Origin: Rubricoccaceae bacterium
GTDB lineage: Bacteria > Bacteroidota > Rhodothermia > Rhodothermales > Rubricoccaceae
Direction of reading: 5' to 3'
Length of the DNA: 64,000 bases
Assembly: GCA_963811175.1 (NCBI GenBank)
Contig: CAWEQE010000002.1
Span: 276,797-340,796 of the forward strand
Shown here: in pieces, positions 1-13,334 of the stretch
Numbering within the stretch: position 1 is the first letter of the stretch
How the letters are laid out: each line of letters opens with the position of its first letter
Program-made: the position numbers and the translations under genes
Notes under the pieces: model-generated
The model's database searches: none
What the model was told of the DNA's origin: nothing
The model's input: the letters and a program-made list of their open reading frames with translations, nothing else

Positions 1-374
1 GACCCTCCGACGAAGCCGATGGCCTCCCCCTTCCACGCCACCGAGCACGCATGGAGCACGAGGTGGCCCCGCTGACGGAGGATGACGGCGAGCGGCTGGC
101 CGACGAGGCACTGCTCGACGAGGTCCTCGGGCATCTCCTTCTTCCGGTACACCCAGACCTGCTCTCCCCCTTCTGCGAGGTAGTAGAGGCTCCCGTAGAA
201 TTGGGCCGCGACGGCATCTCCGCCGAGCCGGTCGGCGGCGGCGGCGTGGAGATCGTTCCACTCGGCCTCGCCCACCTCCGTGATGACGACGTCACGCGGG
301 GCCTCCTGGCACCGGAGACCTCCCAATCGAATGTCCGAGTGGATACCGAGACCGAACAGCTTGTAGGAATACAT
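1..374 (-). CDS. HPr kinase-like (HprK-related) kinase, N-terminal part; runs off the window edge
   Basis: Not in the ORF track. Manual translation from ATG at 374 gives MYSYKLFGLGIHSDIRLGG...LAVILRQRGHLVLHACSVAWKGEAIGFVGG, typical of the segment just before the P-loop of HprK-related kinases found in lasso clusters. Confidence 0.75.
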   Translation of the reverse strand, partial: MYSYKLFGLGIHSDIRLGGLRCQEAPRDVVITEVGEAEWNDLHAAAADRLGGDAVAAQFYGSLYYLAEGGEQVWVYRKKEMPEDLVEQCLVGQPLAVILRQRGHLVLHACSVAWKGEAIGFVGG

Positions 375-588
375 CCGGCGGGGTCGTCGTGAGCCAACGT
401 TATCGTGCGGTCGAGGAGCATCCTGAAACGGCGCCCCACCCGCTGGGGGGGTGACCACCCAGAAGATAGGGTGAGGCCGCCCACTGGCCCGCTTCTCCAG
501 GCGCCCCATGTCGGTGGCGACGAAGCCTCTGGAGGACGCACGACCTCTCCCTCAGAGCGTGTTGGCACGCGTCTAGAGACGGGCTACC

Positions 589-840
589 TCACGGAGTTGC
601 TCTGGGCAGCACTGATGGGGGTGGCATTCGGATAGCGCACGCGTACTCCGAAGCCCGGCCGGAGAATCCGACGGTGTCGGTGGGCGTGAGGACGGTGTCC
701 CGCCCGGTCGCGCTGCCCGTCAACCCGGTCAGAGCGACGAGGTCTCCGTGCTCCGTCATGCGCGGCGTGACGTTCGTGTTCGTGAGATGGAGGTTCAGAC
801 GAGCCGCCGCGGAGGCGCGGCGGCGAGCCTTCCTCCTCAC
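589..840 (-). CDS. Candidate lasso peptide precursor (start uncertain)
   Basis: Frame encodes N-V-T-P-R-M-T-E-H-G-D-L-V-A-L-T-G, matching YxxPxLxxxGxxxxxT spacing with Y>N and L>M. A putative core LTGSATGRD(9)... follows. It lies directly after the cyclase. An in-frame GTG at 840 overlaps the cyclase TGA. Confidence 0.55.
   Translation of the reverse strand: MRRKARRRASAAARLNLHLTNTNVTPRMTEHGDLVALTGLTGSATGRDTVLTPTDTVGFSGRASEYACAIRMPPPSVLPRATP
803..824. other. GC-rich 9-bp hairpin immediately downstream of the cyclase stop, upstream of the precursor leader motif
   Basis: GCCGCCGCG-GAGG-CGCGGCGGC; no U-tract on the minus strand. Confidence 0.5.
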
Positions 841-2870
841 AAGAGCCCGTTCCGTTCGAGCAGCTTGTAGGTCCCGTACACCTGGACGAGGAGCGTCCGC
901 GCCGGGTCCGACTGCGTCGGATCGGCGGCCATCGCGCGACGGTGTAGGTCGCGGAGCCGCTCGGGCTGCACCACGTCTCCGAACGTTCCAGGATCGTCCA
1001 CCCACGCCGCCAGACGCTCGCCCTCGATGCGCGTGAGCGTGTGAACGAAGGCAGACGTGATGTCCGCCTTGCCCCCCCGGTTCGCAATGGACGTCGGCAA
1101 CACGTCTCTGAGCGCGGCGCGGAGCACGTAGCGGGTCCACCCGTCGTGTAGCAAGAGGGCCGGCGGGAGCCCGATGCAGTACTCCACCAGCGGACGGTAG
1201 AGGAACGGGTGGCGCGACTCGACGCCGAACGAGCCCGCGGCGAGGTTCGTCAGCGTAATCCCTCGGTTGAACCGTGGATGCTGGAGGACCATGCGGCGTC
1301 CCTCGACCGCGTCCGATGGGTCGAGGTCGCTGAACGACGACTCGTCCGCGGCGTCGATCCGGCCCCTCAGGTTCACGCGACGGGCGAGGTCGGGATCGAC
1401 CAAGTCCAACCCCAGCGCGTTGATCTCGCCGGTCTTTTCGTCCCCGTCGGCTCCACGCCCGAGAACGGCTCGTGCTAACGCCCGGAAGAGCTGGGAGCGC
1501 GAGACGCCGAGGTGCTGGCGGGCGCCGCGGACGCCCCGAAGCAAGCTCTTCCACTCCCGGCGGGTGGCGGCCTCGTGCAGGACTGGGTACCCGTACCCCG
1601 CGAAGATGCGGCCCGTCGAGCGCAGGGTTTCCTGGAAGGGCTGGAAGTGGGCCTCTCCGTCGAGCCGGCTGGCGACAGCCGGAGCGAGCCGAGCGAACTC
1701 GGCCCAGTCGCCCTCCTGAGCCAGCCGGCGGAGGTACTCAAGACCGTGGCCCACGACGTTGTCCCCGTCGAGGCCGTCGAGCAGTACGCCGACACCGGCT
1801 TGCTTCGCGGCCCCGACGAGCCCCCACACGATGTGCTGGTTCCCCCCGACGGGCTCGTCGTCGAGGGTGTCGTAGAGGTCGTCCAGGTTGGAGAGGGGGC
1901 CGAGTTGCGCGCCGTCGACGAAGTGAGGCACGATCCCTCCTTGCTCCACCACGGCGTCGATGTAGACCCGCTCATCGGACACCGGGACGCCTTCGTAGAT
2001 GGCCGAGAACGCGTGGAGCGTCTCCCCCCGCTCCGACAGCACCTCACGAGCCACACAGGCGACGGCCGAGGAGTCGAGCCCACCGCTGAGGTGAGAGCCG
2101 ATCGGGACGACGCTCCGGGTGCAGCGCGTGACGCCCTCCCAGAACCGCGACCGGAACCCCTCCACCAGATCGTCCACCGAGCGCCCGTCCAGGCCGGCCT
2201 CCGGCTCGAGCTCGTAGTACGACTCGGTGCGGAGCCCTTGCGGCTCGACGACCAGCCTCTCTGCCGCACCGAGCAAGAACACCCCGTCGTAGATGGTCCC
2301 GTACGGGTCCTCGCGGAGCAGGGCGAGGTACTCCGCCAGCTTCCCCTCGTTCAACCGCTTCGGGACCTCTTCCAGCGTGAAGAGCGCCTTCGGCTCGCTC
2401 GCAAACGCGAAGACGGCCGGGCTGTGGTAGTAGTAGAGCGGCCGGACGCCGAACGGGTCCCGCGCACAGGTCAGCGTCCTCTCCTCCCGGTCCCAGATGG
2501 CGAGCGCGAAGTCCCCGACCAGCTGGCGGAAGGCGTCTGCTCCCCAGCGGAGGTAGGCGCGGAGCGCCAGCGCGCCGTCTGACATCGTCGCGACCTCGTC
2601 CGGCGAGAGCCTCATCCGTCGCCCGAGGTCCTCACGGTTGTCGAGCCGGAGGTCCGCGACCATCCGGTAGCGACCTCCCGCCGCCTCGACCACGCCGTCG
2701 TCGGTGGTCGCGGTCGTGCGGTGCGCCCGGTATCCGAGGGCCACCGGCCCATCCTCCAGGACCGACTCTGAGTCCGGCCCTCGATGTGAGAGGGGCCCAA
2801 TCATGTCCCGCGCCGCTCGCTCGCTCGCGTCTTGGCCAGTGAGTCGGTAGTAGCCTGAAATAGCGCTCAT
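837..2870 (-). CDS. Asparagine synthetase-like protein / lasso peptide cyclase (C protein)
   Basis: Likely start MSAISGYY at 2870. Has CARDPFGVRPLYY, FASEPKAL, the PP-loop LSGGLDSS and ESRHPFL. Ser replaces the catalytic Cys of the Ntn glutaminase domain. Confidence 0.85.
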   Translation of the reverse strand: MSAISGYYRLTGQDASERAARDMIGPLSHRGPDSESVLEDGPVALGYRAHRTTATTDDGVVEAAGGRYRMVADLRLDNREDLGRRMRLSPDEVATMSDGALALRAYLRWGADAFRQLVGDFALAIWDREERTLTCARDPFGVRPLYYYHSPAVFAFASEPKALFTLEEVPKRLNEGKLAEYLALLREDPYGTIYDGVFLLGAAERLVVEPQGLRTESYYELEPEAGLDGRSVDDLVEGFRSRFWEGVTRCTRSVVPIGSHLSGGLDSSAVACVAREVLSERGETLHAFSAIYEGVPVSDERVYIDAVVEQGGIVPHFVDGAQLGPLSNLDDLYDTLDDEPVGGNQHIVWGLVGAAKQAGVGVLLDGLDGDNVVGHGLEYLRRLAQEGDWAEFARLAPAVASRLDGEAHFQPFQETLRSTGRIFAGYGYPVLHEAATRREWKSLLRGVRGARQHLGVSRSQLFRALARAVLGRGADGDEKTGEINALGLDLVDPDLARRVNLRGRIDAADESSFSDLDPSDAVEGRRMVLQHPRFNRGITLTNLAAGSFGVESRHPFLYRPLVEYCIGLPPALLLHDGWTRYVLRAALRDVLPTSIANRGGKADITSAFVHTLTRIEGERLAAWVDDPGTFGDVVQPERLRDLHRRAMAADPTQSDPARTLLVQVYGTYKLLERNGLL

Positions 2871-3247
2871 GTAGGTCTTTGGGTGTAGAGCGTGCGCAAG
2901 GGCTCGCGGCCTCTCCCCAGGATACCCTGCTCCTGGGGAGCTGCATGCGTGGAAGTTTTGAGACGCCGGCGCCCTGTGGCCGCACGCGGCCTTGGCCGGG
3001 GTGGCGCATCCTCCAGCCTCAACATGAGCCAACTCCCCTCCTCCTGCGGAACCGAAAGCGCTTTCCTCTATCCGCCCTGTTGGTGACACTGTGGCAACCG
3101 TGAGGGGGTCCGTGCATTGCCCCTCGATTCCACCACCGCCGCCAGCTTGTGAGCTGGCGCTCGTATCGAGACCTCTAGTTGATGCCCTCACCCGCCCCTC
3201 TCGGCCGAGCGCTGAGCCCCCCTCCGACCTTCCATCCCCTTCTCAGC

Positions 3248-4003
3248 GTGTCGCTCGCCAAAAGCACTGTGGGCACCTCTCCCTCGCGTTCGGTCTCGCC
3301 CATCCGGGTCGTCGCCATCGACGACCACCCGGCGGTTCGGGACGCGATCGCCCAGGCCGTCGCGGCCCAGCCCGACATGGACCTCGCCGGCGTCGCCGGG
3401 TCCGCCGCCGAGGCCTTCGACCTCCTCCGGACCGCGGACCCCGACGTCGCCGTCGTCGACATCTCCCTCGGCGACGCCCACGGGCTCGACCTCGTCCAGA
3501 ACCTCCGCGCCCAGCACCCCGACCTCGAGGTCGTCGTCTTCTCGATGTACGACGAGGCCGTCTACGCCGAGCGCGCGCTCCGGGCCGGGGCCCGCGGCTA
3601 CGTCCGGAAGTCGGAGCCGACCACGGCCGTGACCGAGGCGATCCGGGCCGCGGCCGCCGGCGAGATCTACCTCGCCCGGCGCGCGGCGAGCCGGATCCTC
3701 GCCCGCGTCGCGTTCGGGGCCGAGCGCGGTGCCCCGACCAAGGGCGAGGGCGGGGGCCGGGCCGGGGGGCCGGGGGCCGGGCCCGCCGAGGGGCTCGAGG
3801 AGCTGACCGACCGGGAGATGGCCGTGTTCCAGCTCCTGGGGCAGGGGCGGCCGCCGGAGGAGATCGCCGACCGGCTGAACCTCTCGCGGAAGACGGTCGA
3901 GACGTACCGGCGGCGGGCCAAGGAGAAGCTCGGGCTCGACTCGGTCACGGAGCTGCTCCAGTTCGCCATCCGGTGGACCTACGCTCAGGGGACCGACAGC
4001 TAG
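3248..4003 (+). CDS. NarL/LuxR-family response regulator (REC + LuxR HTH)
   Basis: VVAIDDHP, VAVVDISL (phospho-Asp), GARGYVRK, and LTDREMAVFQLLGQG...LSRKTVETYR. Start approximate. Confidence 0.9.
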   Translation: MSLAKSTVGTSPSRSVSPIRVVAIDDHPAVRDAIAQAVAAQPDMDLAGVAGSAAEAFDLLRTADPDVAVVDISLGDAHGLDLVQNLRAQHPDLEVVVFSMYDEAVYAERALRAGARGYVRKSEPTTAVTEAIRAAAAGEIYLARRAASRILARVAFGAERGAPTKGEGGGRAGGPGAGPAEGLEELTDREMAVFQLLGQGRPPEEIADRLNLSRKTVETYRRRAKEKLGLDSVTELLQFAIRWTYAQGTDS

Positions 4004-5133
4004 GACCTCAGCTGGTCAGGCCGGGCGGGTAGCGGCGCCTCCTCATGCGGACTCACCATGCGCTCGATCAGGCGCCGGAGGGCCACGTAGCTGAGGTATC
4101 GAATCTGGCCTCGTACATCGTCCTGTGCTTGGAGAACGAGCCGCGCCCGGTCGCCCCCGCTCATGACCCACTCCTCGTGGAACGTCCTCAGGTGAGACTG
4201 GACGTGGACGGAGAGGGAGGCGGCTTTGGGATCGGACCGGGCACGATCGACGACCTCCTTTGGGAACGGAGCGCCGATCTCGTCGGCCGCGACGAGGACG
4301 CCTACGCGAAAGGCTCGGAGGCTCTTCGTCTGCTCAGCCAAGGTCTCCAACTCATTCCAGTCATCGACGAACGGCCCCAGCTGGGCTAGGTCGCTCGCGA
4401 GTCGGAGGCGGTTCCACTGGTCCTTCAGGGCGTTCACACAGAGCGTGAGGAACAGGTCGTGCCAACCGAGTGCACGGACGGCCTCGCCTCCCACCGTGAT
4501 CTCACGCGACCTCTGGATCAGAACGTCGTAGTCCCCGGCATAGGAGTATCCACGGGGTACCACGCTGGTGTGCGCGTCCACGGTCGACACCTGCGTCCCG
4601 ACTCGGCGGCCGAACGTGTACTCTCCGTGTACGAAGAGATAACCTTTGAGCTGGCGTTCGCTCTTCTTCAGGCGGTCGAATCCTATATCGAGGAGGACAC
4701 GCTCGAGCCGGGAGAAGTCGCCTGCCCGCACGAGAAGGTCGTTGTCAACGAACGGCCGGTAGGCCATGCCCCCGTACGCCTCTGCCAACGACGGCCCCTT
4801 GAGGACCAAAAATGGGATCTCGACCTCCTTGAGCGCCCGTGCAATCTTCGCCATCTCCGCGGACAGGAACAGGACCTGGACGCCTCCCTCCACCGCTCGG
4901 CGCCGGAGGTAGTCGACAACCTCGGGAGGGACGCCCTCCGGTTCGTGCTCCTTCAGGTGAACCCACATCATGGGGAGGACCCGGTGGTACGCGGCCAGCC
5001 CAATCACTCCTTTCCAGTCCACATTCTCCAGCCCCGCCTCCAGCGCGTCGATGTGGTGATCGTCCAGTCGCGCTCTGGCGAACAGGCGGACCAGTTCGTA
5101 CTCAGCGTCGGTGATAGAGGCGTAGTGTCCCAT
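4000..5133 (-). CDS. Nucleotidyltransferase family protein (NTP_transf_5 type, lasso-cluster associated)
   Basis: IPFLVLKGPSLAEAYGG...RPFVDNDLLV resembles the LKG...R...D.DLLV motif. Start MGHYAS at 5133. Confidence 0.85.
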   Translation of the reverse strand: MGHYASITDAEYELVRLFARARLDDHHIDALEAGLENVDWKGVIGLAAYHRVLPMMWVHLKEHEPEGVPPEVVDYLRRRAVEGGVQVLFLSAEMAKIARALKEVEIPFLVLKGPSLAEAYGGMAYRPFVDNDLLVRAGDFSRLERVLLDIGFDRLKKSERQLKGYLFVHGEYTFGRRVGTQVSTVDAHTSVVPRGYSYAGDYDVLIQRSREITVGGEAVRALGWHDLFLTLCVNALKDQWNRLRLASDLAQLGPFVDDWNELETLAEQTKSLRAFRVGVLVAADEIGAPFPKEVVDRARSDPKAASLSVHVQSHLRTFHEEWVMSGGDRARLVLQAQDDVRGQIRYLSYVALRRLIERMVSPHEEAPLPARPDQLRS

Positions 5134-5279
5134 CGTGAGCGAACGTAGGATAGTCAACCCCGCCTCAATGCATACTGTGGAATCGACTCGGAGCGCATCC
5201 GAGGGGCGGCTTCGTTGCCGTCCCCGGACGGAAGATCAACATACGGAGCCTCTGCCCCTCCTCGGGTCCGGGAGCAACC

Positions 5280-5345
5280 GCAGGTCGGACCTGCACAACT
5301 ATTACATCGTAATAATTTAGATTCATATGATTTAATGTCGATCGG
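5280..5345. promoter_or_regulatory. AT-rich patch with palindromes, putative internal promoter/operator
   Basis: GCAGGTC-G-GACCTGC (5280-5294), ATTAC-ATC-GTAAT (5301-5313) and TCATATGA (5323-5330), upstream of the nucleotidyltransferase. Confidence 0.4.
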
Positions 5346-5568
5346 CATACATCCTACTGTGGTGGCGCGTCCGACGCAGCCGACCGGAACCCGACCCTGC
5401 CGAGCCGATCTAGGGTCTGTGTGGGACCTCATGCGGCGCCCCCTTTCCCCGTCCGTCATTCCTGCGTAGGCGGGGCTCATCGGACGCCTCAGAAGGGACT
5501 GGCCCCCCACCTGCGCGGGGATGACGTCGGAAGGGAGTTCGTGTACAAGCCGGACCGTTCCCACTTCG

Positions 5569-6672
5569 TCACGGACGCAACCTCATCTCGGCCATCACTG
5601 CTCGGTGGTCCGAAAGTCCCGGGGGTCCGGTGGCGGCCGCGAGCACGTCCCATTCTGGACTCGCGAAGACCGCATCGATCTGGACGAGCGGTCGATCGTT
5701 GGGGTAGGTCGGAGCCCATCCAGGCGCCATCCGAATGGCATCTCGCAGGCTGGCGGAGATTGCAGCGTAGACCCACTGGTGGGGAGTCGAGTTGAGGTCG
5801 CCGGCGACGAGGAACGGGATGGTTTCTTCCTCCAAGAGAGTTCGGAGACGCTCAGCTTCCTGAGCCCGCAGCACGAAGTCGCGCCTTAACCCTTCTACCG
5901 ACTGGAGCCAGTCGCGGAGGTCCGTCGAGGGAGTCGGCATCGAGGGGCGGTCTTCGTTGAACGACCGGAGGTGGACGTTGTAGACCGCCACGTCGCGGCC
6001 GTCCCACTCGAGGGTCACACGCGAGTACCGACCGGCGCTCTCGTCCCCCGCTGCTCCGAGCGACCCGGCTGTGTGGGTGCCGATGGGCAAGCGTGTCAGC
6101 GTCGTCACGCTGCTCTCGTCGTCGGACTCGGGGGCTCGGTACCCTGCAGCGAGCGCGGCCAAGACGGGGGGAGGAGCCGAAAACACGGGCCCGACTTCCT
6201 CTACTACCGTCCGATGAAGAGCGGCTTCTTGAAACAGGACGAGGTCGGGCCGCACACGGTCGAGGACGCCTTCCATCAACGCGTGCGCCGGTGGCCCTCC
6301 CTTCCCAGCATTCAGGCTGACGATCCGAAAGGAAGTCTCCCGTCTCTCCGTCAATGCACGTTCCTCGGAGAGAAGAGGCACGGTGGTGAGGGGAATGAAC
6401 CGAACCGCAGCCGCGCCCACGAGGGCCGCGTGCGCGCCGACTCCAACCCAGCGGAGGACCCGGCCCTTCGGCGGCCAACGCGCCCACACGGCGCTCGTCA
6501 AGACGGTCCCGACAGCCGTCGCAGGCAACGCCAGCGCTGCGAGTTGGAGACGCCACTCCACGGCAGGGGGGACAGACCGAGCCGCGTATCCGAGCACGAA
6601 CAACGCGGAGACCGCAGCATCAGCGGCGGCGAACAGGCCCCACCCGACCCGCTTTCTCACGCTCACCTTCAC
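5569..6672 (-). CDS. Membrane-anchored endonuclease/exonuclease/phosphatase (EEP) family protein
   Basis: N-terminal TM helices, SLNAG, LFQEA, YNVHL, VAGDLNS, QIDAVF and SDH motifs. Start approximate (GTG 6672). Confidence 0.85.
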   Translation of the reverse strand: MKVSVRKRVGWGLFAAADAAVSALFVLGYAARSVPPAVEWRLQLAALALPATAVGTVLTSAVWARWPPKGRVLRWVGVGAHAALVGAAAVRFIPLTTVPLLSEERALTERRETSFRIVSLNAGKGGPPAHALMEGVLDRVRPDLVLFQEAALHRTVVEEVGPVFSAPPPVLAALAAGYRAPESDDESSVTTLTRLPIGTHTAGSLGAAGDESAGRYSRVTLEWDGRDVAVYNVHLRSFNEDRPSMPTPSTDLRDWLQSVEGLRRDFVLRAQEAERLRTLLEEETIPFLVAGDLNSTPHQWVYAAISASLRDAIRMAPGWAPTYPNDRPLVQIDAVFASPEWDVLAAATGPPGLSDHRAVMAEMRLRP

Positions 6673-6748
6673 CGTGTTGCGAGCACACAGCAGCCCTGAC
6701 GAACGCTGTCGTTCACCGCGAGGACTCTCGCGAACGCCCCTCGTCTCC

Positions 6749-7273
6749 TCACGCTTGTTCCGTGGCCGACGGACGTGGGCGGACAGGCCGGCTCTCGGAC
6801 GGCCGGTCGGTAGCGGGCCGGAACGGGGCATACGTCGTCCTAGAGTCGGCGCCTCCGATGACGACAGTCCCCTCGTGCTCGAGCCATGCGTGCGCCTGAA
6901 ACGTTCCGTCGGCGGATCGGGTAGCGCCCAAGTGAAGGTCTGTGTCGATTCCGCAGGATCGCAGAAGGCGACGGGCTACGAGCGCCTGGGTCAAGCAGGG
7001 GCGATCACGGAGAGCACGCTTCGAAACAGCACCGATGGCCCAGACGGTGACTTTCGCTTCTGCCCAGTCGGGGGGACGTGGAGAAACGGTCTGCCGCTCG
7101 AACGCTGCCGACACCAGCCGCCACGGGAAGACCGCCAGCGCGGCCCGCGTCGCTGGAACCCAAGCGAGTGCCCGAGCCAGCGCCGCCCACTCCCGCCCGG
7201 AGAGAGACCCCAGCGTGCGTACGTGGCGCGACGCGCGGCGGAGGGCAGCGAAGCGAGCGGTCCCGGAGTTCAT
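6749..7273 (-). CDS. Lasso peptide B2 protein (transglutaminase-like leader protease)
   Basis: Start MNSG at 7273 overlaps the PqqD stop by 4 bp. Has PCLTQAL (Cys) and AHAWLE (His). Confidence 0.88.
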   Translation of the reverse strand: MNSGTARFAALRRASRHVRTLGSLSGREWAALARALAWVPATRAALAVFPWRLVSAAFERQTVSPRPPDWAEAKVTVWAIGAVSKRALRDRPCLTQALVARRLLRSCGIDTDLHLGATRSADGTFQAHAWLEHEGTVVIGGADSRTTYAPFRPATDRPSESRPVRPRPSATEQA

Positions 7274-7548
7274 TGGACGGTAATCAGCCCCCGACGCTCC
7301 AGGTCTCCGACGAATGCGGTGACGTCTCCAAAAAGCCGGTTGCGGTCCACATCGAACTCGTCGAGCAAGCGGTCCACGATGGAGTCGATGGTGATGGTCT
7401 CCTGCGCGAGGTCGAGGATGCGAGCCGCGACCTCGTTCAGGCCGAAGTAGGTCCCGGACGTAGGATCGAGCAAAACAGCCTCGCTTCCCAGGTCGGCAAC
7501 GGCAACGTTCTGGGAGACGACGACGGTCGCGTCTGGAGAGAGGGACAT
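7270..7548 (-). CDS. PqqD-family RiPP recognition element (lasso B1/E protein)
   Basis: 92 aa; EAVLLDPTSGTYFGLNEVAARI...FVGDLERRGLI. Confidence 0.9.
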   Translation of the reverse strand: MSLSPDATVVVSQNVAVADLGSEAVLLDPTSGTYFGLNEVAARILDLAQETITIDSIVDRLLDEFDVDRNRLFGDVTAFVGDLERRGLITVQ

Positions 7549-7563
7549 CAGGTGTACGCGGTG

Positions 7564-8790
7564 TCAGGTAGGGTTCTGGAGGGCCGGCTCGTGAGACGCG
7601 CGCTCCCCAGCGGAAACTATGCCGTCTCCTCCTTCGACAGCCTCGGATTCTTTCAACGGGTACTCCCCCGCCCACTCGTCGTCGATGTTCGGCGTCTCGC
7701 GCTGCGTCAGAGCTGGGATCGGACGCAGAGAGGGCGACGAGTACGGGAAGCGGACGTAGCCTAACCGGAGAAGGAGAGCGACGATCACGACCGCCGCCGC
7801 CGCCATCGCGGCTGTGCCCCCTGTCCAGGTCGAGAAGCTCATGAGCACGGCGAGAACGCCGAACATCGACGCCACTCCGTACAGGACGATCACCGCCCGG
7901 CGCGTCTCCATCCGGTCGACCATCCGGTGATGGATGTGGTCCCGATCCGGGGCGTAGATCGACCGCTTCCCGACGGCCCGCCGCACCATCGACAAGACGG
8001 TGTCCAAAATGGGGAGGCCGAGCGCGAGCACGGGGACGAGGAGACCCAGGATAGGATTGCTACTGGCGGGCGCCGTGATCGCGTAGACCGCCAGGGAGTA
8101 CCCGAGAAAGAGGCTCCCCGAATCGCCCATAAAGATGGTCGCGGGGCTGAAGTTGTGGACGAGGAATCCTCCCACGGCCCCCACGAACACGGCCGCGACG
8201 GCCGCCAGTGCGAGGTCCCCGGAAAGTCCGAACACGACGGCCAAGCTCACGAACGCGATCCCGACCACTCCCCCGGCGAGCCCGTCGATCCCATCGATCA
8301 TGTTCACGGCGTTGGTGACTCCCACCACCCACAGGATCGTGAGCGTGGCGCCCAAGGTGGACGCAGCGGCAGGGGCCATGCCGAGCCCAACGAGGGGCGA
8401 GAGGTCCACGTTCACACCCACGTACACCAATCCGGCAGCCACGAGGGCCTCTACGACCAGTCTCGCCTTGAACCCAAGGCCCCGTACGTCGTCAATGGCT
8501 CCGGTCGCCGCCATGATACAGGCGCCCAACACGACGAAGGGGTGGAGCCCAGATCCCGCGAGGGAGAGCCGGGGGGCCGCCCACAGCACGAGAGCCATGC
8601 CGCACACCGTCCCGCAAAAGATGGCGACGCCTCCGATGGACGGCGTCACCCGTCGGTGAAGCTTCCGCCGGCCGTCCGGCTGGTCTGTCCATCCCCGCCG
8701 GACGGCGAGCCGACCCACGAGCGGAGTCATCCATGCCGTCACCCCGAACGCGACGGCGAATCCAGCGAGGACGAGATAGAAGAGCGTCAT
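7564..8790 (-). CDS. MraY/WecA/TagO-family undecaprenyl-phosphate sugar-1-phosphate transferase
   Basis: RKLH...PSIGG, GAIDD, NAVNMIDGIDGLA, FMGDSGS, DRDHIHH; polytopic. Confidence 0.92.
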   Translation of the reverse strand: MTLFYLVLAGFAVAFGVTAWMTPLVGRLAVRRGWTDQPDGRRKLHRRVTPSIGGVAIFCGTVCGMALVLWAAPRLSLAGSGLHPFVVLGACIMAATGAIDDVRGLGFKARLVVEALVAAGLVYVGVNVDLSPLVGLGMAPAAASTLGATLTILWVVGVTNAVNMIDGIDGLAGGVVGIAFVSLAVVFGLSGDLALAAVAAVFVGAVGGFLVHNFSPATIFMGDSGSLFLGYSLAVYAITAPASSNPILGLLVPVLALGLPILDTVLSMVRRAVGKRSIYAPDRDHIHHRMVDRMETRRAVIVLYGVASMFGVLAVLMSFSTWTGGTAAMAAAAVVIVALLLRLGYVRFPYSSPSLRPIPALTQRETPNIDDEWAGEYPLKESEAVEGGDGIVSAGERASHEPALQNPT

Positions 8791-8827
8791 CGAGTAAGCC
8801 TCCCCGCAGACTCACACTAGGAGGCTA

Positions 8828-9392
8828 TTACCGGGTTGCATCGTAGAGCCGGAGAATCAGCAGAGTGATTGATGCAACTCTGGATGCAATTTCTACGCCA
8901 TCTCGAAACGTGAACGGTTCACCTAGGTCCTCGTATGTCACGTCGAGTTCTACGAGGTCGTCGTTCTGGAGCACGGGATGGTTCTGGGGTTCGCGGAACG
9001 CCTGCTCCGTGGTCGCCTCGTAGATCACATCGCGGCCTCCCCCTCCCGTGGCCCGGAGGACTCCGGACGAACGCCTCGGTGATCTGGCGGTCGGTCTCTT
9101 CGGAGGTCGGGACGCCGCCGGAAAGGACCAAAAGCTGGGTGAGCGAGGTCCCTCGCTGGAGTCGGTAGATCCCGTTCCGGGCCCCCTCTCCAGCCATGAA
9201 GACCTCAATGGTCGGGGCGCCGGCCTCCGTAAAGATGAAGTACGCGGTGCCGGAAGTTTGGAGGTCTTCGGTTACGGGTCCATCGTACACCTGCGCGTTG
9301 GCGGGGAGGGCGTACGTGGCAGCGAGGAGGCAGAGCGCGAGGGCGGCGCTGGATACGGATCGGGCGCCGCCCTTGAAGCGGAGAGTCATCAT
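8828..9392 (-). pseudogene. SLBB-domain polysaccharide export accessory protein, +1 frameshift at ~9063
   Basis: Signal peptide plus GIYRLQRGTSLTQLLVLSGG in one frame and ...VLQNDDLVEL...TM in another. Removing one base at 9063-9064 joins them (GTC CGA GTC CTC; ~187 aa). Confidence 0.7.
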
Positions 9393-11752
9393 TAGGCTTC
9401 GTTCGGGGCCTTCGGCTGGCGCCGGCTGAGACGGAGCTTCTTCTTCGCCGGGGTCGATCCGTAGGCGCCGTACGACCCGCCGGGGCCGTACTTCGAGTAC
9501 GGGCCGTAGCGGGAGTAGTGGCCGTACGTGTAGGCGTAGCCGAGGGCGTTCTTGAGCGAGAACTTGTTGAGAACGGCGCCGACCACGCGAGCGCCGACAT
9601 CCGAGAGATGGGAGAGCGCTTGCTCGATGTCGCCCGCCTTCGTCTTCCCGGCGCTGGCGACGAGGATCGTCGCGTCCGCCTGCGTGGCCAGGAGCACGGC
9701 GTCGGTCGCGGCCAGCACTGGGGGCGTATCGATCACGACCACGTCGACGATCTCGTGGAGTGCCTGGAGGAGCTCTCGGAAGTCGGACGACCCGAGAAGC
9801 TCAGACGGGTTGTTCACGCGGGCCCGGCCGTCGTCTGGATCGGTAGCCCCGGCTTCGGCCGCGATGGCGCCAGTCGGGACGACGTAGAGGTCATCAATGG
9901 GACCCTTGAACGATCCGTCCAGCCACGTGCGGAGGGTCTCAGGGTCGGTACGCTTCGTCGAGAGGATCTGAGCGAGCCCCGGCGTCGGCGCCGTCCCGAA
10001 CACGTCATGGATGCGGGGACGGCGAATGTCGGCGTCGAGGAGGAGGGTCCGGCGCCCGGCCTGGGCGAACGTGACGGCGAGGTTCGAGGCCGTCGTCGAC
10101 TTGCCTTCGCCAGCCCCCGCGCTGGAGACGAGGATCGTCCGCACGAGGACGTCGGGGCGGCTGAACTGGATCGCTGTCCGGAGATGCCGGTACGTCTCGG
10201 AGGCCGGCGAGAGCGGGGCATGGAGCGCGATCAGCTCGGAGGCGATCGGGACTCCGTTCGCCTCGATGGTCGCGGCCCCGTCGTACTCGTCCTCGATCAC
10301 CGAGGTGAGATCGGGGACGGCTTCGAGGACGGGGACCCCGAGCGCTGCGATGTGCTCCGGCTTGTGGATTCGGTTGTCGATCTTGTCGCGGCCGACGGCG
10401 AGCGCGATCCCGAGCCCGAGCCCGCCGAGCAGCGCCAGCGCGAGCGTCTTGTACGGGTTCGTTCCGGTCGGGAGCACGGGCGGCGTCGCCTCGCGGAGGA
10501 CGCGGGCGTAGCCCGGCTCCGACTCCTCCTGGACGCGGACCTGCTGGAGCTGGCTGACGACGTTCTGGTACATCCCGACCACCTGATCGCGGTCGCGAGC
10601 CACACGGCCCATCGCCGTCGTCTGAGACGGGACCCGGCCCAGCTCACGCTCGAGCTCGCCGATCCGTCGGTTGAGCACGCCGATCTGGCCCTCGATCCCA
10701 TCGATCTGGATCTGCTCCTGGGACGCACTGGACTTGAGGTCGGTGACGAACGAGAGCGCCGTCTGGGGGGCCACCACGCCCCCGGCGTCGAGCGCCTCCC
10801 GCGCGAACTCGCCAGCGAGCGTCTGCTTCTCGCGCTCGAGCGAGGCGATCTGGCGCTGGATTTCCTGTGCGCGCCCACTCACACTCTCCCCCCGAGCGAT
10901 TCGGGGCTGGAACGTCGTGCGGTACTCCGTTTCGAGTTGGGCCAGTTGCGCATCGATCTGCTGGATGCGGCGCTCACTGTTAGACGACATCCGGTCCGCG
11001 AGGCGCGGGGCGATGTCGCCGAGCTGGTCGTTGATCGACTGGAGGCGGTACCGGCTCGTCTGGAGCGCGATCTGAGCCTCGTCGCGCTGGGCTTTGAGGC
11101 TGGCGAGCTGGGTGATGAGCGAGCTCGCACCGAGGGCCGCCGTGCCCTGGGACTCCATCTGGCCCTCCACTTCCCCTTCCGCCTCGTTCAACTCCCCCCG
11201 GAGCCGGTCGGCCTGCTCCTCCAAGAACTTGCGGGTGTCCGTCAGGTAGCTCCGGCTGGCCGTCTGGGTCTGCGACACGTACTCCTCGGCGTAGGCGTTC
11301 GCCAGCGCGGCGGCGGCCTGCGGGTCCGTGCTGGTGGCCGTGATCTGGATGGCGCTCGCCACGTCTCGGGTCGCCTGCGAGAACCCGACGTTCCCCGGCA
11401 GATCTCCTCCGAACCGGTTCATGACGCGCTCCCGAATCCCGAGCGACGAGTTGAGAACGAACAGCTCCGTTGACACGGAGCGGTTGGCGCGGACGAAGGG
11501 GCCGGCCTCGGTGACGGTGCTGGCCTCACTCCCCTGTGCCCGGCTGAGATCGACGAGGACGTAGGCCGCCGTCTGGTACATCGGCGTCTGCGTGAACACG
11601 TATGCGACCGACAAAGCCAGCATGACCGCGACGGAGGCCACGACGATCCAGCGGCGGCGGTAGAGGACGTCGAGGATCTCCTCGATCTGTCGCTTGCGGG
11701 AACTCGCCCGTGGAGCGGTGCGGCGAGGGACGGGGGACGGGTCGTTGGTCAT
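9392..11752 (-). CDS. wzc: Wzc/GumC-type polysaccharide co-polymerase with BY-kinase domain
   Basis: Two TMs flanking a coiled coil; SETYRHLRT, Walker A GAGEGKST, LLLDADIRRP, VIDTPP, and a C-terminal Tyr cluster YAYTYGHYSRYGPYSKY. Start MTNDP at 11752. Confidence 0.92.
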   Translation of the reverse strand: MTNDPSPVPRRTAPRASSRKRQIEEILDVLYRRRWIVVASVAVMLALSVAYVFTQTPMYQTAAYVLVDLSRAQGSEASTVTEAGPFVRANRSVSTELFVLNSSLGIRERVMNRFGGDLPGNVGFSQATRDVASAIQITATSTDPQAAAALANAYAEEYVSQTQTASRSYLTDTRKFLEEQADRLRGELNEAEGEVEGQMESQGTAALGASSLITQLASLKAQRDEAQIALQTSRYRLQSINDQLGDIAPRLADRMSSNSERRIQQIDAQLAQLETEYRTTFQPRIARGESVSGRAQEIQRQIASLEREKQTLAGEFAREALDAGGVVAPQTALSFVTDLKSSASQEQIQIDGIEGQIGVLNRRIGELERELGRVPSQTTAMGRVARDRDQVVGMYQNVVSQLQQVRVQEESEPGYARVLREATPPVLPTGTNPYKTLALALLGGLGLGIALAVGRDKIDNRIHKPEHIAALGVPVLEAVPDLTSVIEDEYDGAATIEANGVPIASELIALHAPLSPASETYRHLRTAIQFSRPDVLVRTILVSSAGAGEGKSTTASNLAVTFAQAGRRTLLLDADIRRPRIHDVFGTAPTPGLAQILSTKRTDPETLRTWLDGSFKGPIDDLYVVPTGAIAAEAGATDPDDGRARVNNPSELLGSSDFRELLQALHEIVDVVVIDTPPVLAATDAVLLATQADATILVASAGKTKAGDIEQALSHLSDVGARVVGAVLNKFSLKNALGYAYTYGHYSRYGPYSKYGPGGSYGAYGSTPAKKKLRLSRRQPKAPNEA

Positions 11753-12142
11753 GGGGATAGCAGCAGATAAGAGCCGCGAGCGTAGGTCTCGGGAACGCAC
11801 GATACCGAGCAGGACTCGCGCCACCCTCCCGGGTCGGGCTCAACAGGCATGGGTTTTTGGCGCACGTAATCCGGTCCTGGACGATCTATTCATCTTTCCG
11901 GTCGAAGTCGGCGGTCTTGTCCGTCGCGTGTCTCAACGAGCGAACAGAGCACACTCTCGATTGATCCGCGAGACATGACACCCCACAAAACTGTCACTTC
12001 GGAGACCTTTCCTGGCTCGTTTGGGGAATCCAGACGGAGCCTGGTCATCTGACGGGAACGGTCTGGCGCGAGCGCGATCCGCTAACGAGAATCGCTGGCC
12101 AACAGGACGAAACCGCCGAAGCCGTTCCTCCGAACCGAGCGT

Positions 12143-13210: not shown

Positions 13211-13247
13211 GCTCCCGGTCCAGGTTCGGCGACTCTGGACCGGGAGC
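13211..13247. terminator. 13-bp hairpin directly downstream of tRNA-Ser
   Basis: GCTCCCGGTCCAG ... CTGGACCGGGAGC perfect inverted repeat. Confidence 0.55.
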
Positions 13248-13334
13248 GGAGAGAGAGGGATTCGAACCCTCGGTACCGGGAACCGGCACACGCGCTTTCC
13301 AGGCGCGCCCCTTCAGCCACTCGGGCACCTCTCC
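13247..13334 (-). tRNA. tRNA-Ser(GGA)
   Basis: GGAGAGGTGCCCGAGTGGCTGAAGG...GCGCGC-CTGGAAA-GCGCGT, long variable arm, GGTTCGAATCC T-loop, acceptor stem CTCTCC-G; CCA not encoded. Confidence 0.95.

Follow-up and report, generated by a model that had tools for sequence, protein, structure and literature searches.

In paeninodin and in the kinase-bearing lasso clusters of Sphingobium, the C-terminal Ser of the precursor is phosphorylated (PMC8498205). In the case of pseudomycoidin, the NTP transferase PsmN (the product of gene N, which is listed as "uncharacterized") is needed for the addition of one or two hexoses to the phosphoserine (PMC6993621). In Bacilli, clusters for paeninodin-like lassos and for a linear polyphosphorylated peptide (LPP) are embedded in capsular polysaccharide loci (Nat Commun 2026, PMC13381572); the authors of that study stated that the role of the capsule-locus clusters was unknown and speculated about biofilms. 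In the literature, we found no earlier description of lasso peptides in Rhodothermota or of lasso peptides with Wzc. Here, we describe a locus at one end of a 64,000-nucleotide stretch of DNA (the window) from a Rubricoccaceae bacterium, in which the genes of a lasso pathway stand behind a gene for the polysaccharide co-polymerase (PCP) Wzc.

The window corresponded to C2:276797-340796 of a 3.77-Mb, 3-contig metagenome assembly (GCA_963811175.1; contig CAWEQE010000002.1), and its source was a Rubrivirga-like Rubricoccaceae bacterium from soil. Positions below are those of the window, and negative positions lie to its left. Gene identities were assigned by comparing Pfam and NCBIfam profile scores to the model cutoffs. 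The source genome is referred to as G000, and the other G-numbers denote compared genomes. As judged from gene content, gene order, and trees, we lean toward the idea that a kinase/nucleotidyltransferase (NTase)-type split-B lasso pathway was inserted in a small exopolysaccharide (EPS) module of the Rhodothermales, and that the two halves are coupled functionally in a single product of the envelope or matrix.

The evidence that carried this idea came from relatives whose record titles were Rubrivirga, Rubricoccaceae, and Rhodothermales. The canonical gene order in these relatives was Wzc-SLBB-(WecA)-B1-B2-C-A(x1-4)-K-D-(EEP)-NTase, in which SLBB is a short protein resembling outer membrane polysaccharide export (OPX) proteins, WecA is a sugar-1-phosphate transferase, B1 and B2 are the two parts of the split B protein, C is the cyclase, A is the precursor, K is the kinase, D is the ABC exporter, and EEP is an EEP-family enzyme. 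The canonical unit was approximately 13 kb long and was co-oriented from wzc to the NTase gene, with overlaps or short gaps between genes, and an opposed LuxR-type response regulator gene closed the unit. The same order was found in the same genus (G002, G008, G009, G013, G015, and G016), in other genera of the family (G152, G153, and G167), in another family (G136 and G137), and in two further Rhodothermales species. The original prediction had proposed a test of wzc-wecA-pqqD-B2-C synteny, and the outcome was strongly in its favor: this order (with slbb in second place and wecA optional) was shared by Rubrivirga, further genera of the Rubricoccaceae, and a second family of the Rhodothermales. 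The fused arrangement recurred in approximately 20 species, so the adjacency was far beyond chance.

Presence and absence within the genus were perfectly correlated. Specifically, 9/9 genomes with the lasso family had an orthologous Wzc no more than 2.2 kb from B1 (54-78% identity, with alignments that started at approximately residue 25), and 0/12 other genomes had an orthologous Wzc; only paralogues of approximately 40% identity were found in the latter. In each relative that contained one, the Wzc orthologue (53-78% identity) adjoined lasso B1. In the Wzc tree, the lasso-linked proteins formed one clade (support 100/99), and each member with enough flanking sequence was adjacent to lasso genes. 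Judging from this tree, the lasso-Wzc fusion had a single origin. The cyclases that followed the common Wzc...B2 head fell into three clades, and the precursors varied as well, which indicated that the peptide-specific part was exchanged while the linkage was kept. The source cyclase belonged to one of the three clades and was 71% identical to that of G010 and 58% identical to that of G007. A second, separate association, in which the lasso genes were followed by Wzc-SLBB, was found in G036 and G139.

Three independent assemblies (L029-L031), which were reached via the neighborhoods of SLBB homologues, contained the co-oriented operon with between one and three open reading frames (ORFs) of 61-64 aa and several start/stop overlaps. 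One of these, L030 (ENA contig ctg147312, 114,825 bp), carried the complete fused operon together with Rep3 and ParA-like genes. This contig is probably a plasmid, and the location of the operon on it suggested that the complete unit is capable of horizontal transfer. As a separate observation, the G010 B1 gene with its flanking DNA (L025:14200-14490) looked far more A+T-rich than the surroundings by eye, which would suggest a recent replacement, and the B2 gene of G010 was located on another contig and contained a stop codon.

The distribution of the Wzc/SLBB pair bore on the direction of the fusion. The short SLBB family was present in 166/285 genomes of the order, and the SLBB gene directly followed a Wzc paralogue gene wherever coordinates were compared or loci were fetched. 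In G147, a pair without lasso genes adjoined genes for AsnB, a GT1 glycosyltransferase, and an MsbA-like ABC protein, and similar arrangements were found in G039 and G108. A GT1-AsnB gene set that also encoded a protein with a type IX secretion system (T9SS) tail was divergent beside wzc in most fused loci. By its distribution, Wzc/SLBB is the co-polymerase/OPX-like pair that is ordinarily found in polysaccharide loci of the Rhodothermales. Because this usual EPS pair also occurred free of lasso genes, the lasso genes appear to have entered the EPS module and not the reverse, with the insertion placed downstream of the initiating transferase gene.

The features of the locus in the source genome were as follows, in the order of transcription from wzc except for the opposed regulator.

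9392-11824, minus strand: Wzc, 810 aa, the operon's first gene, with Wzz, GNVR, and P-loop (ParA/CbiA) domains (TIGR01007, 155.8 bits; cutoff, 108).
8828-9392, minus strand: short SLBB protein, OPX-like, in two frames (ORFs 8919-9392 and 8828-9208; PF10531, 17 bits; cutoff, 27).
7564-8790, minus strand: WecA/MraY-family polyprenyl-phosphate sugar-1-phosphate transferase (GT4), 408 aa (PF00953, 124 bits; TIGR02380, 133 bits, below the cutoff of 326).
7270-7548, minus strand: B1, a PqqD-type RiPP recognition element (RRE), 92 aa (PF05402, 71.5 bits; cutoff, 23.4).
6749-7273, minus strand: B2, lasso leader peptidase, a transglutaminase-like Cys protease (NF033537, 74.4 bits; cutoff, 33; PF13471, 71.7 bits).
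5569-6831, minus strand: EEP-family enzyme, membrane-anchored, with a hydrophobic N-terminal region (PF03372, 49 bits).
4000-5157, minus strand: NTase, PF14907 (NTP_transf_5), 153 bits.
3179-4003, plus strand: opposed LuxR-type response regulator (Response_reg and GerE domains).
837-2870, minus strand: C, lasso macrolactam cyclase, 677 aa from the ATG at 2870 (NF033535, 532.1 bits; cutoff, 525; Asn_synthase and GATase_7 domains).
589-840, minus strand: A, precursor-family ORF, assigned by the family alignment.
Start at 374 or 509, running to -504 (L003:17496-18509), minus strand: K, HprK-like kinase, with weak Hpr_kinase_C and AAA_33 matches and the P-loop GGSGVGKST.
-2420 to -552, directly after K: D, ABC exporter, 622 aa (ABC_membrane and ABC_tran domains).

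All of the genes that had been named from the sequence at the outset were present, and every gene of the locus except the regulator gene was on the minus strand. The spacing that had been reported was also found: the PqqD start was located 15 nt after the GT4 stop, and the B2 ATG (7273) overlapped the PqqD stop (ATGA). In addition, the Wzc and SLBB genes overlapped by 1 nt. The frames of Wzc, GT4, B1, B2, EEP, NTase, C, K, and D were intact and full length. The start of the EEP gene was ambiguous; it was either the ATG at 6831 or a GTG at 6672, 6666, or 6660, beyond the B2 stop. The claim that the genes formed one co-oriented run held for the minus-strand genes, but the opposed regulator parted Wzc...NTase from C-A-K-D, and therefore the locus was not one uninterrupted operon in the source genome. 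The EEP and NTase genes were separated by 411 nt (5158-5568) with the lowest G+C of the region (approximately 0.62); the same two genes abutted or overlapped in relatives. This gap contained the sole sigma-70-like match of the region (5341-5312), and in the promoter/terminator scan as a whole, which relied on a sigma-70 model that was ill-suited to the phylum, the counts were at the level of shuffled sequence. Because of the high G+C of the region (62-72%), many of its ORFs were spurious.

The scores indicated that the lasso half of the locus is a genuine split-B pathway with kinase and NTase accessories, as had been proposed from the sequence alone: C and B2 were above their NCBIfam cutoffs, and B1 was above its Pfam cutoff. 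The best NCBIfam matches of B1 were to the lasso PqqD models, at 55 and 54 bits, which were under the cutoffs of 80 and 70. The B2 motif PCL.QA ... AHAW.E was invariant. The source genome contained four cyclase, four kinase, two B1, and one B2 paralogues, and B2 had a single tblastn match in this genome. In the relatives, the K orthologues of the L029-L031 operons showed weak matches to PF27840 ScmC and PF07475, an NTase gene was seen in each fused operon of sufficient length, and the EEP gene after D was kept in many fused operons.

In the case of the precursors, approximately 30 family members from the relatives and the source genome shared the leader consensus M-K-x-x-Y-x-x-P-x-L-x-x-x-G-x5-T-x. 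The P, the G, the T at position -2, and the core Asp9 were invariant in the alignment. The cores were 40-55 residues long with a 1-9 ring and a first residue that varied (A, F, L, I, or D), and the tails of 30-45 residues contained a second Cys besides that of a conserved Ser-x-(D/F)-x-Cys. A first reading of the precursor, with a leader that ended in ...TDTV and a core that began GFSGRASE (Gly1-Glu8) further downstream, was dropped because the alignment placed the cleavage site after LTG and the ring on Asp9. The ORF in the window aligned with ring residues 1-9 as LTGSATGRD, and it departed from the family in several ways. The leader Tyr was replaced by Asn, the leader motif was not preceded by an ATG (the one ATG present, at 762, was inside the motif), and the sole upstream start was a GTG at 840 that overlapped the cyclase stop. 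Relative to its paralogues, it also carried two 1-nt deletions, near 630 and 620, with loss of the second Cys and destruction of the C-terminal part. The window precursor has thus probably decayed. Three intact orphan paralogues were present elsewhere in the source genome (C1:194920, C1:127687, and C2:1411088), and the substrates in this genome would have to be these three.

In all, approximately 12 orphan ORFs of the source genome, these three paralogues among them, carried the leader motif of lasso precursors (Y..P.L...G.....T.). A second orphan precursor family had eight members (C1:809691, C1:886191, C1:891466, C2:1214239, C2:1495100, C2:1551875, C2:1555077, and C2:1666017) with the core GP.ADGGN.D.LVG..GGF...S/TS. 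This core ended in Ser and had Asp at positions 5 and 10, with no Asp or Glu at the usual ring positions (7-9). The member at C2:1495100 was located approximately 4.4 kb from another Wzc paralogue gene.

In the mechanism that we propose, B1 would bind the YxxP leader, B2 would cleave after Thr(-2)-x, and C would close a 9-residue ring onto Asp9. The tail would then form a disulfide, K would phosphorylate the conserved tail Ser (S-x-D/F-x-C), the NTase would add a sugar to the phosphate, as PsmN does, and D would export the product. Because the peptide genes would be transcribed behind wzc, we propose that peptide and polysaccharide are made together, with the peptide carried on the glycan or beside it as part of the same envelope or matrix product.

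A number of findings weighed against this coupling or against parts of the mechanism. The chemistry of the pathway was deduced entirely from genes, and the operon's own ABC exporter would suffice for a free peptide. The source kinase scored low with both models (Hpr_kinase_C, 19.4 bits; cutoff, 33.3; TIGR04352, 30 bits; cutoff, 200). None of the approximately 30 family precursors ended in Ser (endings included FCE, NCSGA, and QCQAP), so C-terminal phosphorylation of the paeninodin type cannot be assumed; our guess for an alternative phosphosite is the internal Ser, also conserved, that precedes the first Cys. Homologous lasso clusters with no Wzc within 10 kb were found in Salinibacter, Salinivenus, Longibacter, a Wenzhouxiangellaceae metagenome-assembled genome (MAG), and a Myxococcales MAG, which indicated that the fusion was lineage specific and not obligatory for the pathway. 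The WecA-like gene was present in most fused operons and was absent from G007, G008, and G010, and hence it is dispensable. Pfam annotation of the genes in the window operon and in L029-L031, which did not extend to the rest of the genome, yielded no Wzx, Wzy, or Wzb, and no further glycosyltransferase was found among the annotated genes of these operons. A Foldseek search of the SLBB model against the PDB returned no match with E<0.001 and no Wza. Finally, the SLBB gene and the local precursor were frameshifted in the source copy.

The polysaccharide half of the locus has to be described with these findings in mind. Wzc contained the Walker A (AGEGKST), A' (LLLD594), and B (VVVID695) motifs and nine Tyr in its last 45 residues. 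It scored as a PCP-2a Wzc with a tyrosine autokinase domain (TIGR01007, 155.8 versus 108) and was far below the cutoff of the Wzc equivalog models (161 versus 1068 bits). The SLBB protein was approximately 175 aa in relatives. Its AlphaFold model (pLDDT 82.8) consisted of a signal helix that ran to an invariant A-Q, together with a beta-grasp domain and, at the C terminus, a helix of 24 residues, and the Foldseek matches were to generic beta-grasp folds (ComEA, ferredoxin, and ubiquitin-like), of which an SLBB-like ComEA domain had the best probability. There was no Wza structural match and no PES (Poly_export) domain that would identify this protein as a "mini-Wza"; a Wza-like role is plausible from the genomic context. 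In the original prediction, this part of the locus was called a capsule/EPS export operon. This label was overstated: the operon contained only the PCP, the short OPX-like protein, and the optional initiating transferase, and no Wzx or Wzy was recognized among the annotated genes of the window or of L029-L031. Assignment to a classical Wza/Wzb/Wzc (group 1 capsule) system was rejected, since neither an OPX protein with Poly_export and an outer-membrane helix barrel nor Wzx, Wzy, or Wzb was recognized among these genes.

The arrangement of the source copy raised the possibility that it is a decaying remnant, in which both the OPX-like gene and the precursor gene of the locus have become pseudogenes, the operon is broken, and no coupled product is made, whatever the relatives do. 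We regard this possibility, which is independent of the other readings, as a doubtful one that nevertheless deserves to be taken seriously. The SLBB gene contained one extra base near 9062 relative to the intact 177-aa G010 orthologue and continued in the other frame to 8828, and the precursor changes described above (Asn for Tyr within the RRE-binding motif, the lack of an ATG in front of it, and two 1-nt deletions) pointed the same way. Furthermore, C-A-K-D was split from B1-B2 by the opposed regulator and, as in G010, was located behind EEP-NTase-regulator instead of in the canonical position; in G007, C-A-K-D was convergent with Wzc-SLBB-B1-B2. A blastn self-comparison of the source region identified a 697-bp direct repeat (99.4% identity, one gap) made up of the 3' part of the regulator gene (3308-4003) and a copy at -6585 to -5889. 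The left regulator copy was frameshifted between the receiver and helix-turn-helix domains. The repeat bracketed the moved block, which contained the YjbH-like genes and D-K-A-C, and its high identity around this block indicated a recent recombination. On the other side, all of the enzyme frames were intact and full length, three intact precursor paralogues were present elsewhere, and the SLBB and precursor indels may be assembly errors of the metagenome assembly. The reads, which came from one run, were sparse over the region and did not cover 590-700 and 8900-9400.

The reading in which the two gene sets are coupled also has to be set against one in which they are neighbors only. In that case, a free antimicrobial or signaling phospho- or glycopeptide would be secreted via D, the polysaccharide would be unrelated, and the two would share a promoter or regulator (for example, that of a biofilm program) or a mobile island. 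The original prediction had found no peptide ABC exporter and had named an exporter just outside the window as a result that would count against it; D, which begins approximately 550 bp left of the window directly after K and is part of the conserved operon, is such an exporter. It was missed because the window edge cut the locus at that point, and with D the peptide has a route of its own across the inner membrane. A dedicated D was found in every operon. Lasso clusters in Salinibacteraceae, Longibacter, and others without a nearby Wzc, the occurrence of the Wzc/SLBB pair alone in many genomes, and the plasmid-like copy and tRNA-Ser gene 1.4 kb upstream of wzc, which suggested that the unit may be mobile, also fit mere proximity. 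However, the linkage outlasted family-level divergence (with Wzc identity down to 42%), replacement of the cyclase and precursor, and several rearrangements. The genus-level correlation of presence and absence was perfect, the association in G036 and G139 was independent, and a similar co-location is found in Bacilli (PMC13381572). We therefore consider mere proximity unlikely.

A stronger form of the coupling, in which the peptide is covalently joined to the polysaccharide as a primer or end-cap, can be built from the same genes. The phospho-Ser on the peptide tail would play the part of undecaprenyl phosphate, and the WecA-like transferase and/or the PF14907 enzyme would add a sugar or sugar-1-phosphate. 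Chain extension and amidation would fall to the neighboring GT1 and AsnB proteins, the peptide-glycan conjugate would be moved out by the MsbA-like pump together with the Wzc/short-OPX pair, and the EEP enzyme would trim or release it. The covalent linkage is purely an inference, and we judge it to be improbable.

We placed last, as a slim prospect, the idea that Wzc and the short SLBB protein form the periplasmic and outer-membrane leg of a conduit that takes the modified 40-55-residue lasso from D outward, much as PCP/OPX proteins act in ABC-dependent capsules. Wzc and SLBB were invariant partners of the lasso genes and WecA was optional, no other outer-membrane component was recognized among the annotated genes of the operon, and the predicted signal peptide, beta-grasp, and 24-residue terminal helix of SLBB and the unusually long cores were in line with such a conduit. 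Against this, the Wzc/SLBB type was the EPS pair found generally in the order, and it also occurred with GT1/AsnB/ABC genes and no lasso genes, Wzc retained a full tyrosine kinase domain and the Tyr cluster typical of polymer-length control, and SLBB had no structural match to Wza. To our knowledge, there is no precedent for peptide transport by PCP/OPX proteins. Chance adjacency of Wzc and the lasso genes was rejected by the synteny, co-occurrence, and tree results.

The surroundings of the locus contained additional genes. Two YjbH/GfcD-like (outer-membrane, EPS-associated) genes were located on the plus strand immediately left of the ABC exporter gene, at -5500 to -4678 and -3367 to -2525, and they flanked a gene for a 440-aa Cys-rich secreted protein; G010 had a YjbH-like gene after D as well. 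Further left were genes for a PAS histidine kinase, the second regulator copy, a second cyclase-kinase pair, and CysD and CysNC. The second cyclase-like gene (-11493 to -8848, L003:6507-9152, minus strand) scored 353 bits with NF033535, which was below the cutoff. A second HprK-like kinase gene followed it directly with no precursor ORF between the two, and the divergent PAS histidine kinase gene and the duplicated regulator gene adjoined it. The CysD and CysN/CysC genes for 3'-phosphoadenosine-5'-phosphosulfate (PAPS) synthesis, at -14574 to -11531, were recognized by eye from the translations. The segment from -23125 to -17558 encoded a glycosyltransferase and an AsnB-type amidotransferase, together with an MsbA-like ABC protein and a protein with a T9SS tail. 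At approximately -25200 to -23900, a sulfotransferase-like ORF was picked out by eye only, from a P-loop-like motif, and in L029 a gene with a weak Sulfotransfer_4 match was found with an ATP-grasp gene at the distal end of the divergent genes adjacent to wzc. With PAPS genes and a sulfotransferase-like ORF nearby, sulfation of the peptide or the glycan is possible. On the other side of the locus, a tRNA-Ser(GGA) gene (13246-13334, minus strand) was located between frr and a 245-aa ORF upstream of wzc, and it may mark the boundary of an island or a site of integration.

For the role of phosphorylated and phosphoglycosylated (paeninodin-type) lassos, the capsule loci of Bacilli have been the sole published hint (PMC13381572). 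The locus described here adds an independent case from a distant diderm phylum, with a complete pathway fused at the operon level to a Wzc/OPX/phosphoglycosyltransferase (PGT) head. By the comparisons above, the fusion arose once, was kept through family-level divergence and replacement of the peptide genes, and was gained and lost as a unit, which, as comparative evidence that peptide and polysaccharide are functionally linked, is much stronger than simple co-location. The operon is also compact (approximately 13 kb) and testable, and the precursors are intact in relatives. If the link were covalent, it would be a new way to anchor or prime a surface polymer, with an anchor for the capsule or matrix that is ribosomally encoded.

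Among the known systems, the paeninodin cluster (padeCAKB1B2D of Paenibacillus dendritiformis) and the polyphosphorylated lassos of Sphingobium yanoikuyae were similar to the locus in the split B1/B2, the Asn-synthetase-like cyclase, the HprK-like kinase, the ABC exporter, and the leader YxxP with Thr at -2. In contrast to these systems, the precursors here had no terminal Ser and contained two Cys, their cores were 40-55 residues long with a 1-9 ring and no fixed first residue, and the operon had additional EEP and NTase genes and was set behind wzc/slbb/wecA in a diderm phylum. The pseudomycoidin cluster (psm of Bacillus pseudomycoides) likewise has a kinase and an NTP transferase, and the two transferases may belong to the same family, as annotation and PF14907 suggest. 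Unlike the locus here, the psm cluster lacks Wzc, OPX, PGT, and EEP genes.

The capsule-locus clusters of Bacilli (PMC13381572) resembled the locus in that K, an NTP transferase, an MsbA-like exporter, and RRE-containing RiPP (ribosomally synthesized and posttranslationally modified peptide) genes stand within polysaccharide loci; however, the phylum and envelope type here are different, and the fusion to the PCP/OPX/PGT head is at the operon level, monophyletic, and co-inherited. Assignment of the locus to the LPP clusters of Bacillota was rejected because the cyclase and B2 were present and no archaeal-type signal peptidase I (S26) was found among the annotated genes of the window operon and of L029-L031; this peptidase, which removes the leader, is the hallmark of LPP clusters, and these have no cyclase (PMC13381572). 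As in Wza-Wzb-Wzc and other PCP-OPX systems, a Wzc with Wzz/GNVR domains, Walker A/A'/B motifs, and a C-terminal Tyr cluster was followed by a secreted SLBB-type protein, but the OPX-like protein here was approximately 175 aa and had no Poly_export (PES) domain. The HPr-rel-A system of NCBIfam also pairs an HprK-related kinase with a PqqD-family chaperone; this assignment was rejected as well, given the scores (TIGR04352, 30 versus 200 bits; TIGR04353, 33.8 versus 35 bits) and the presence of a true lasso B2 and cyclase. Thus, lasso clusters with a kinase and an NTase were already known, as was their location in the capsule loci of Bacilli, and the new elements are an unusual family of precursors and, in Rhodothermota, a fusion to a PCP/OPX/PGT head that is at the operon level, monophyletic, and co-inherited.

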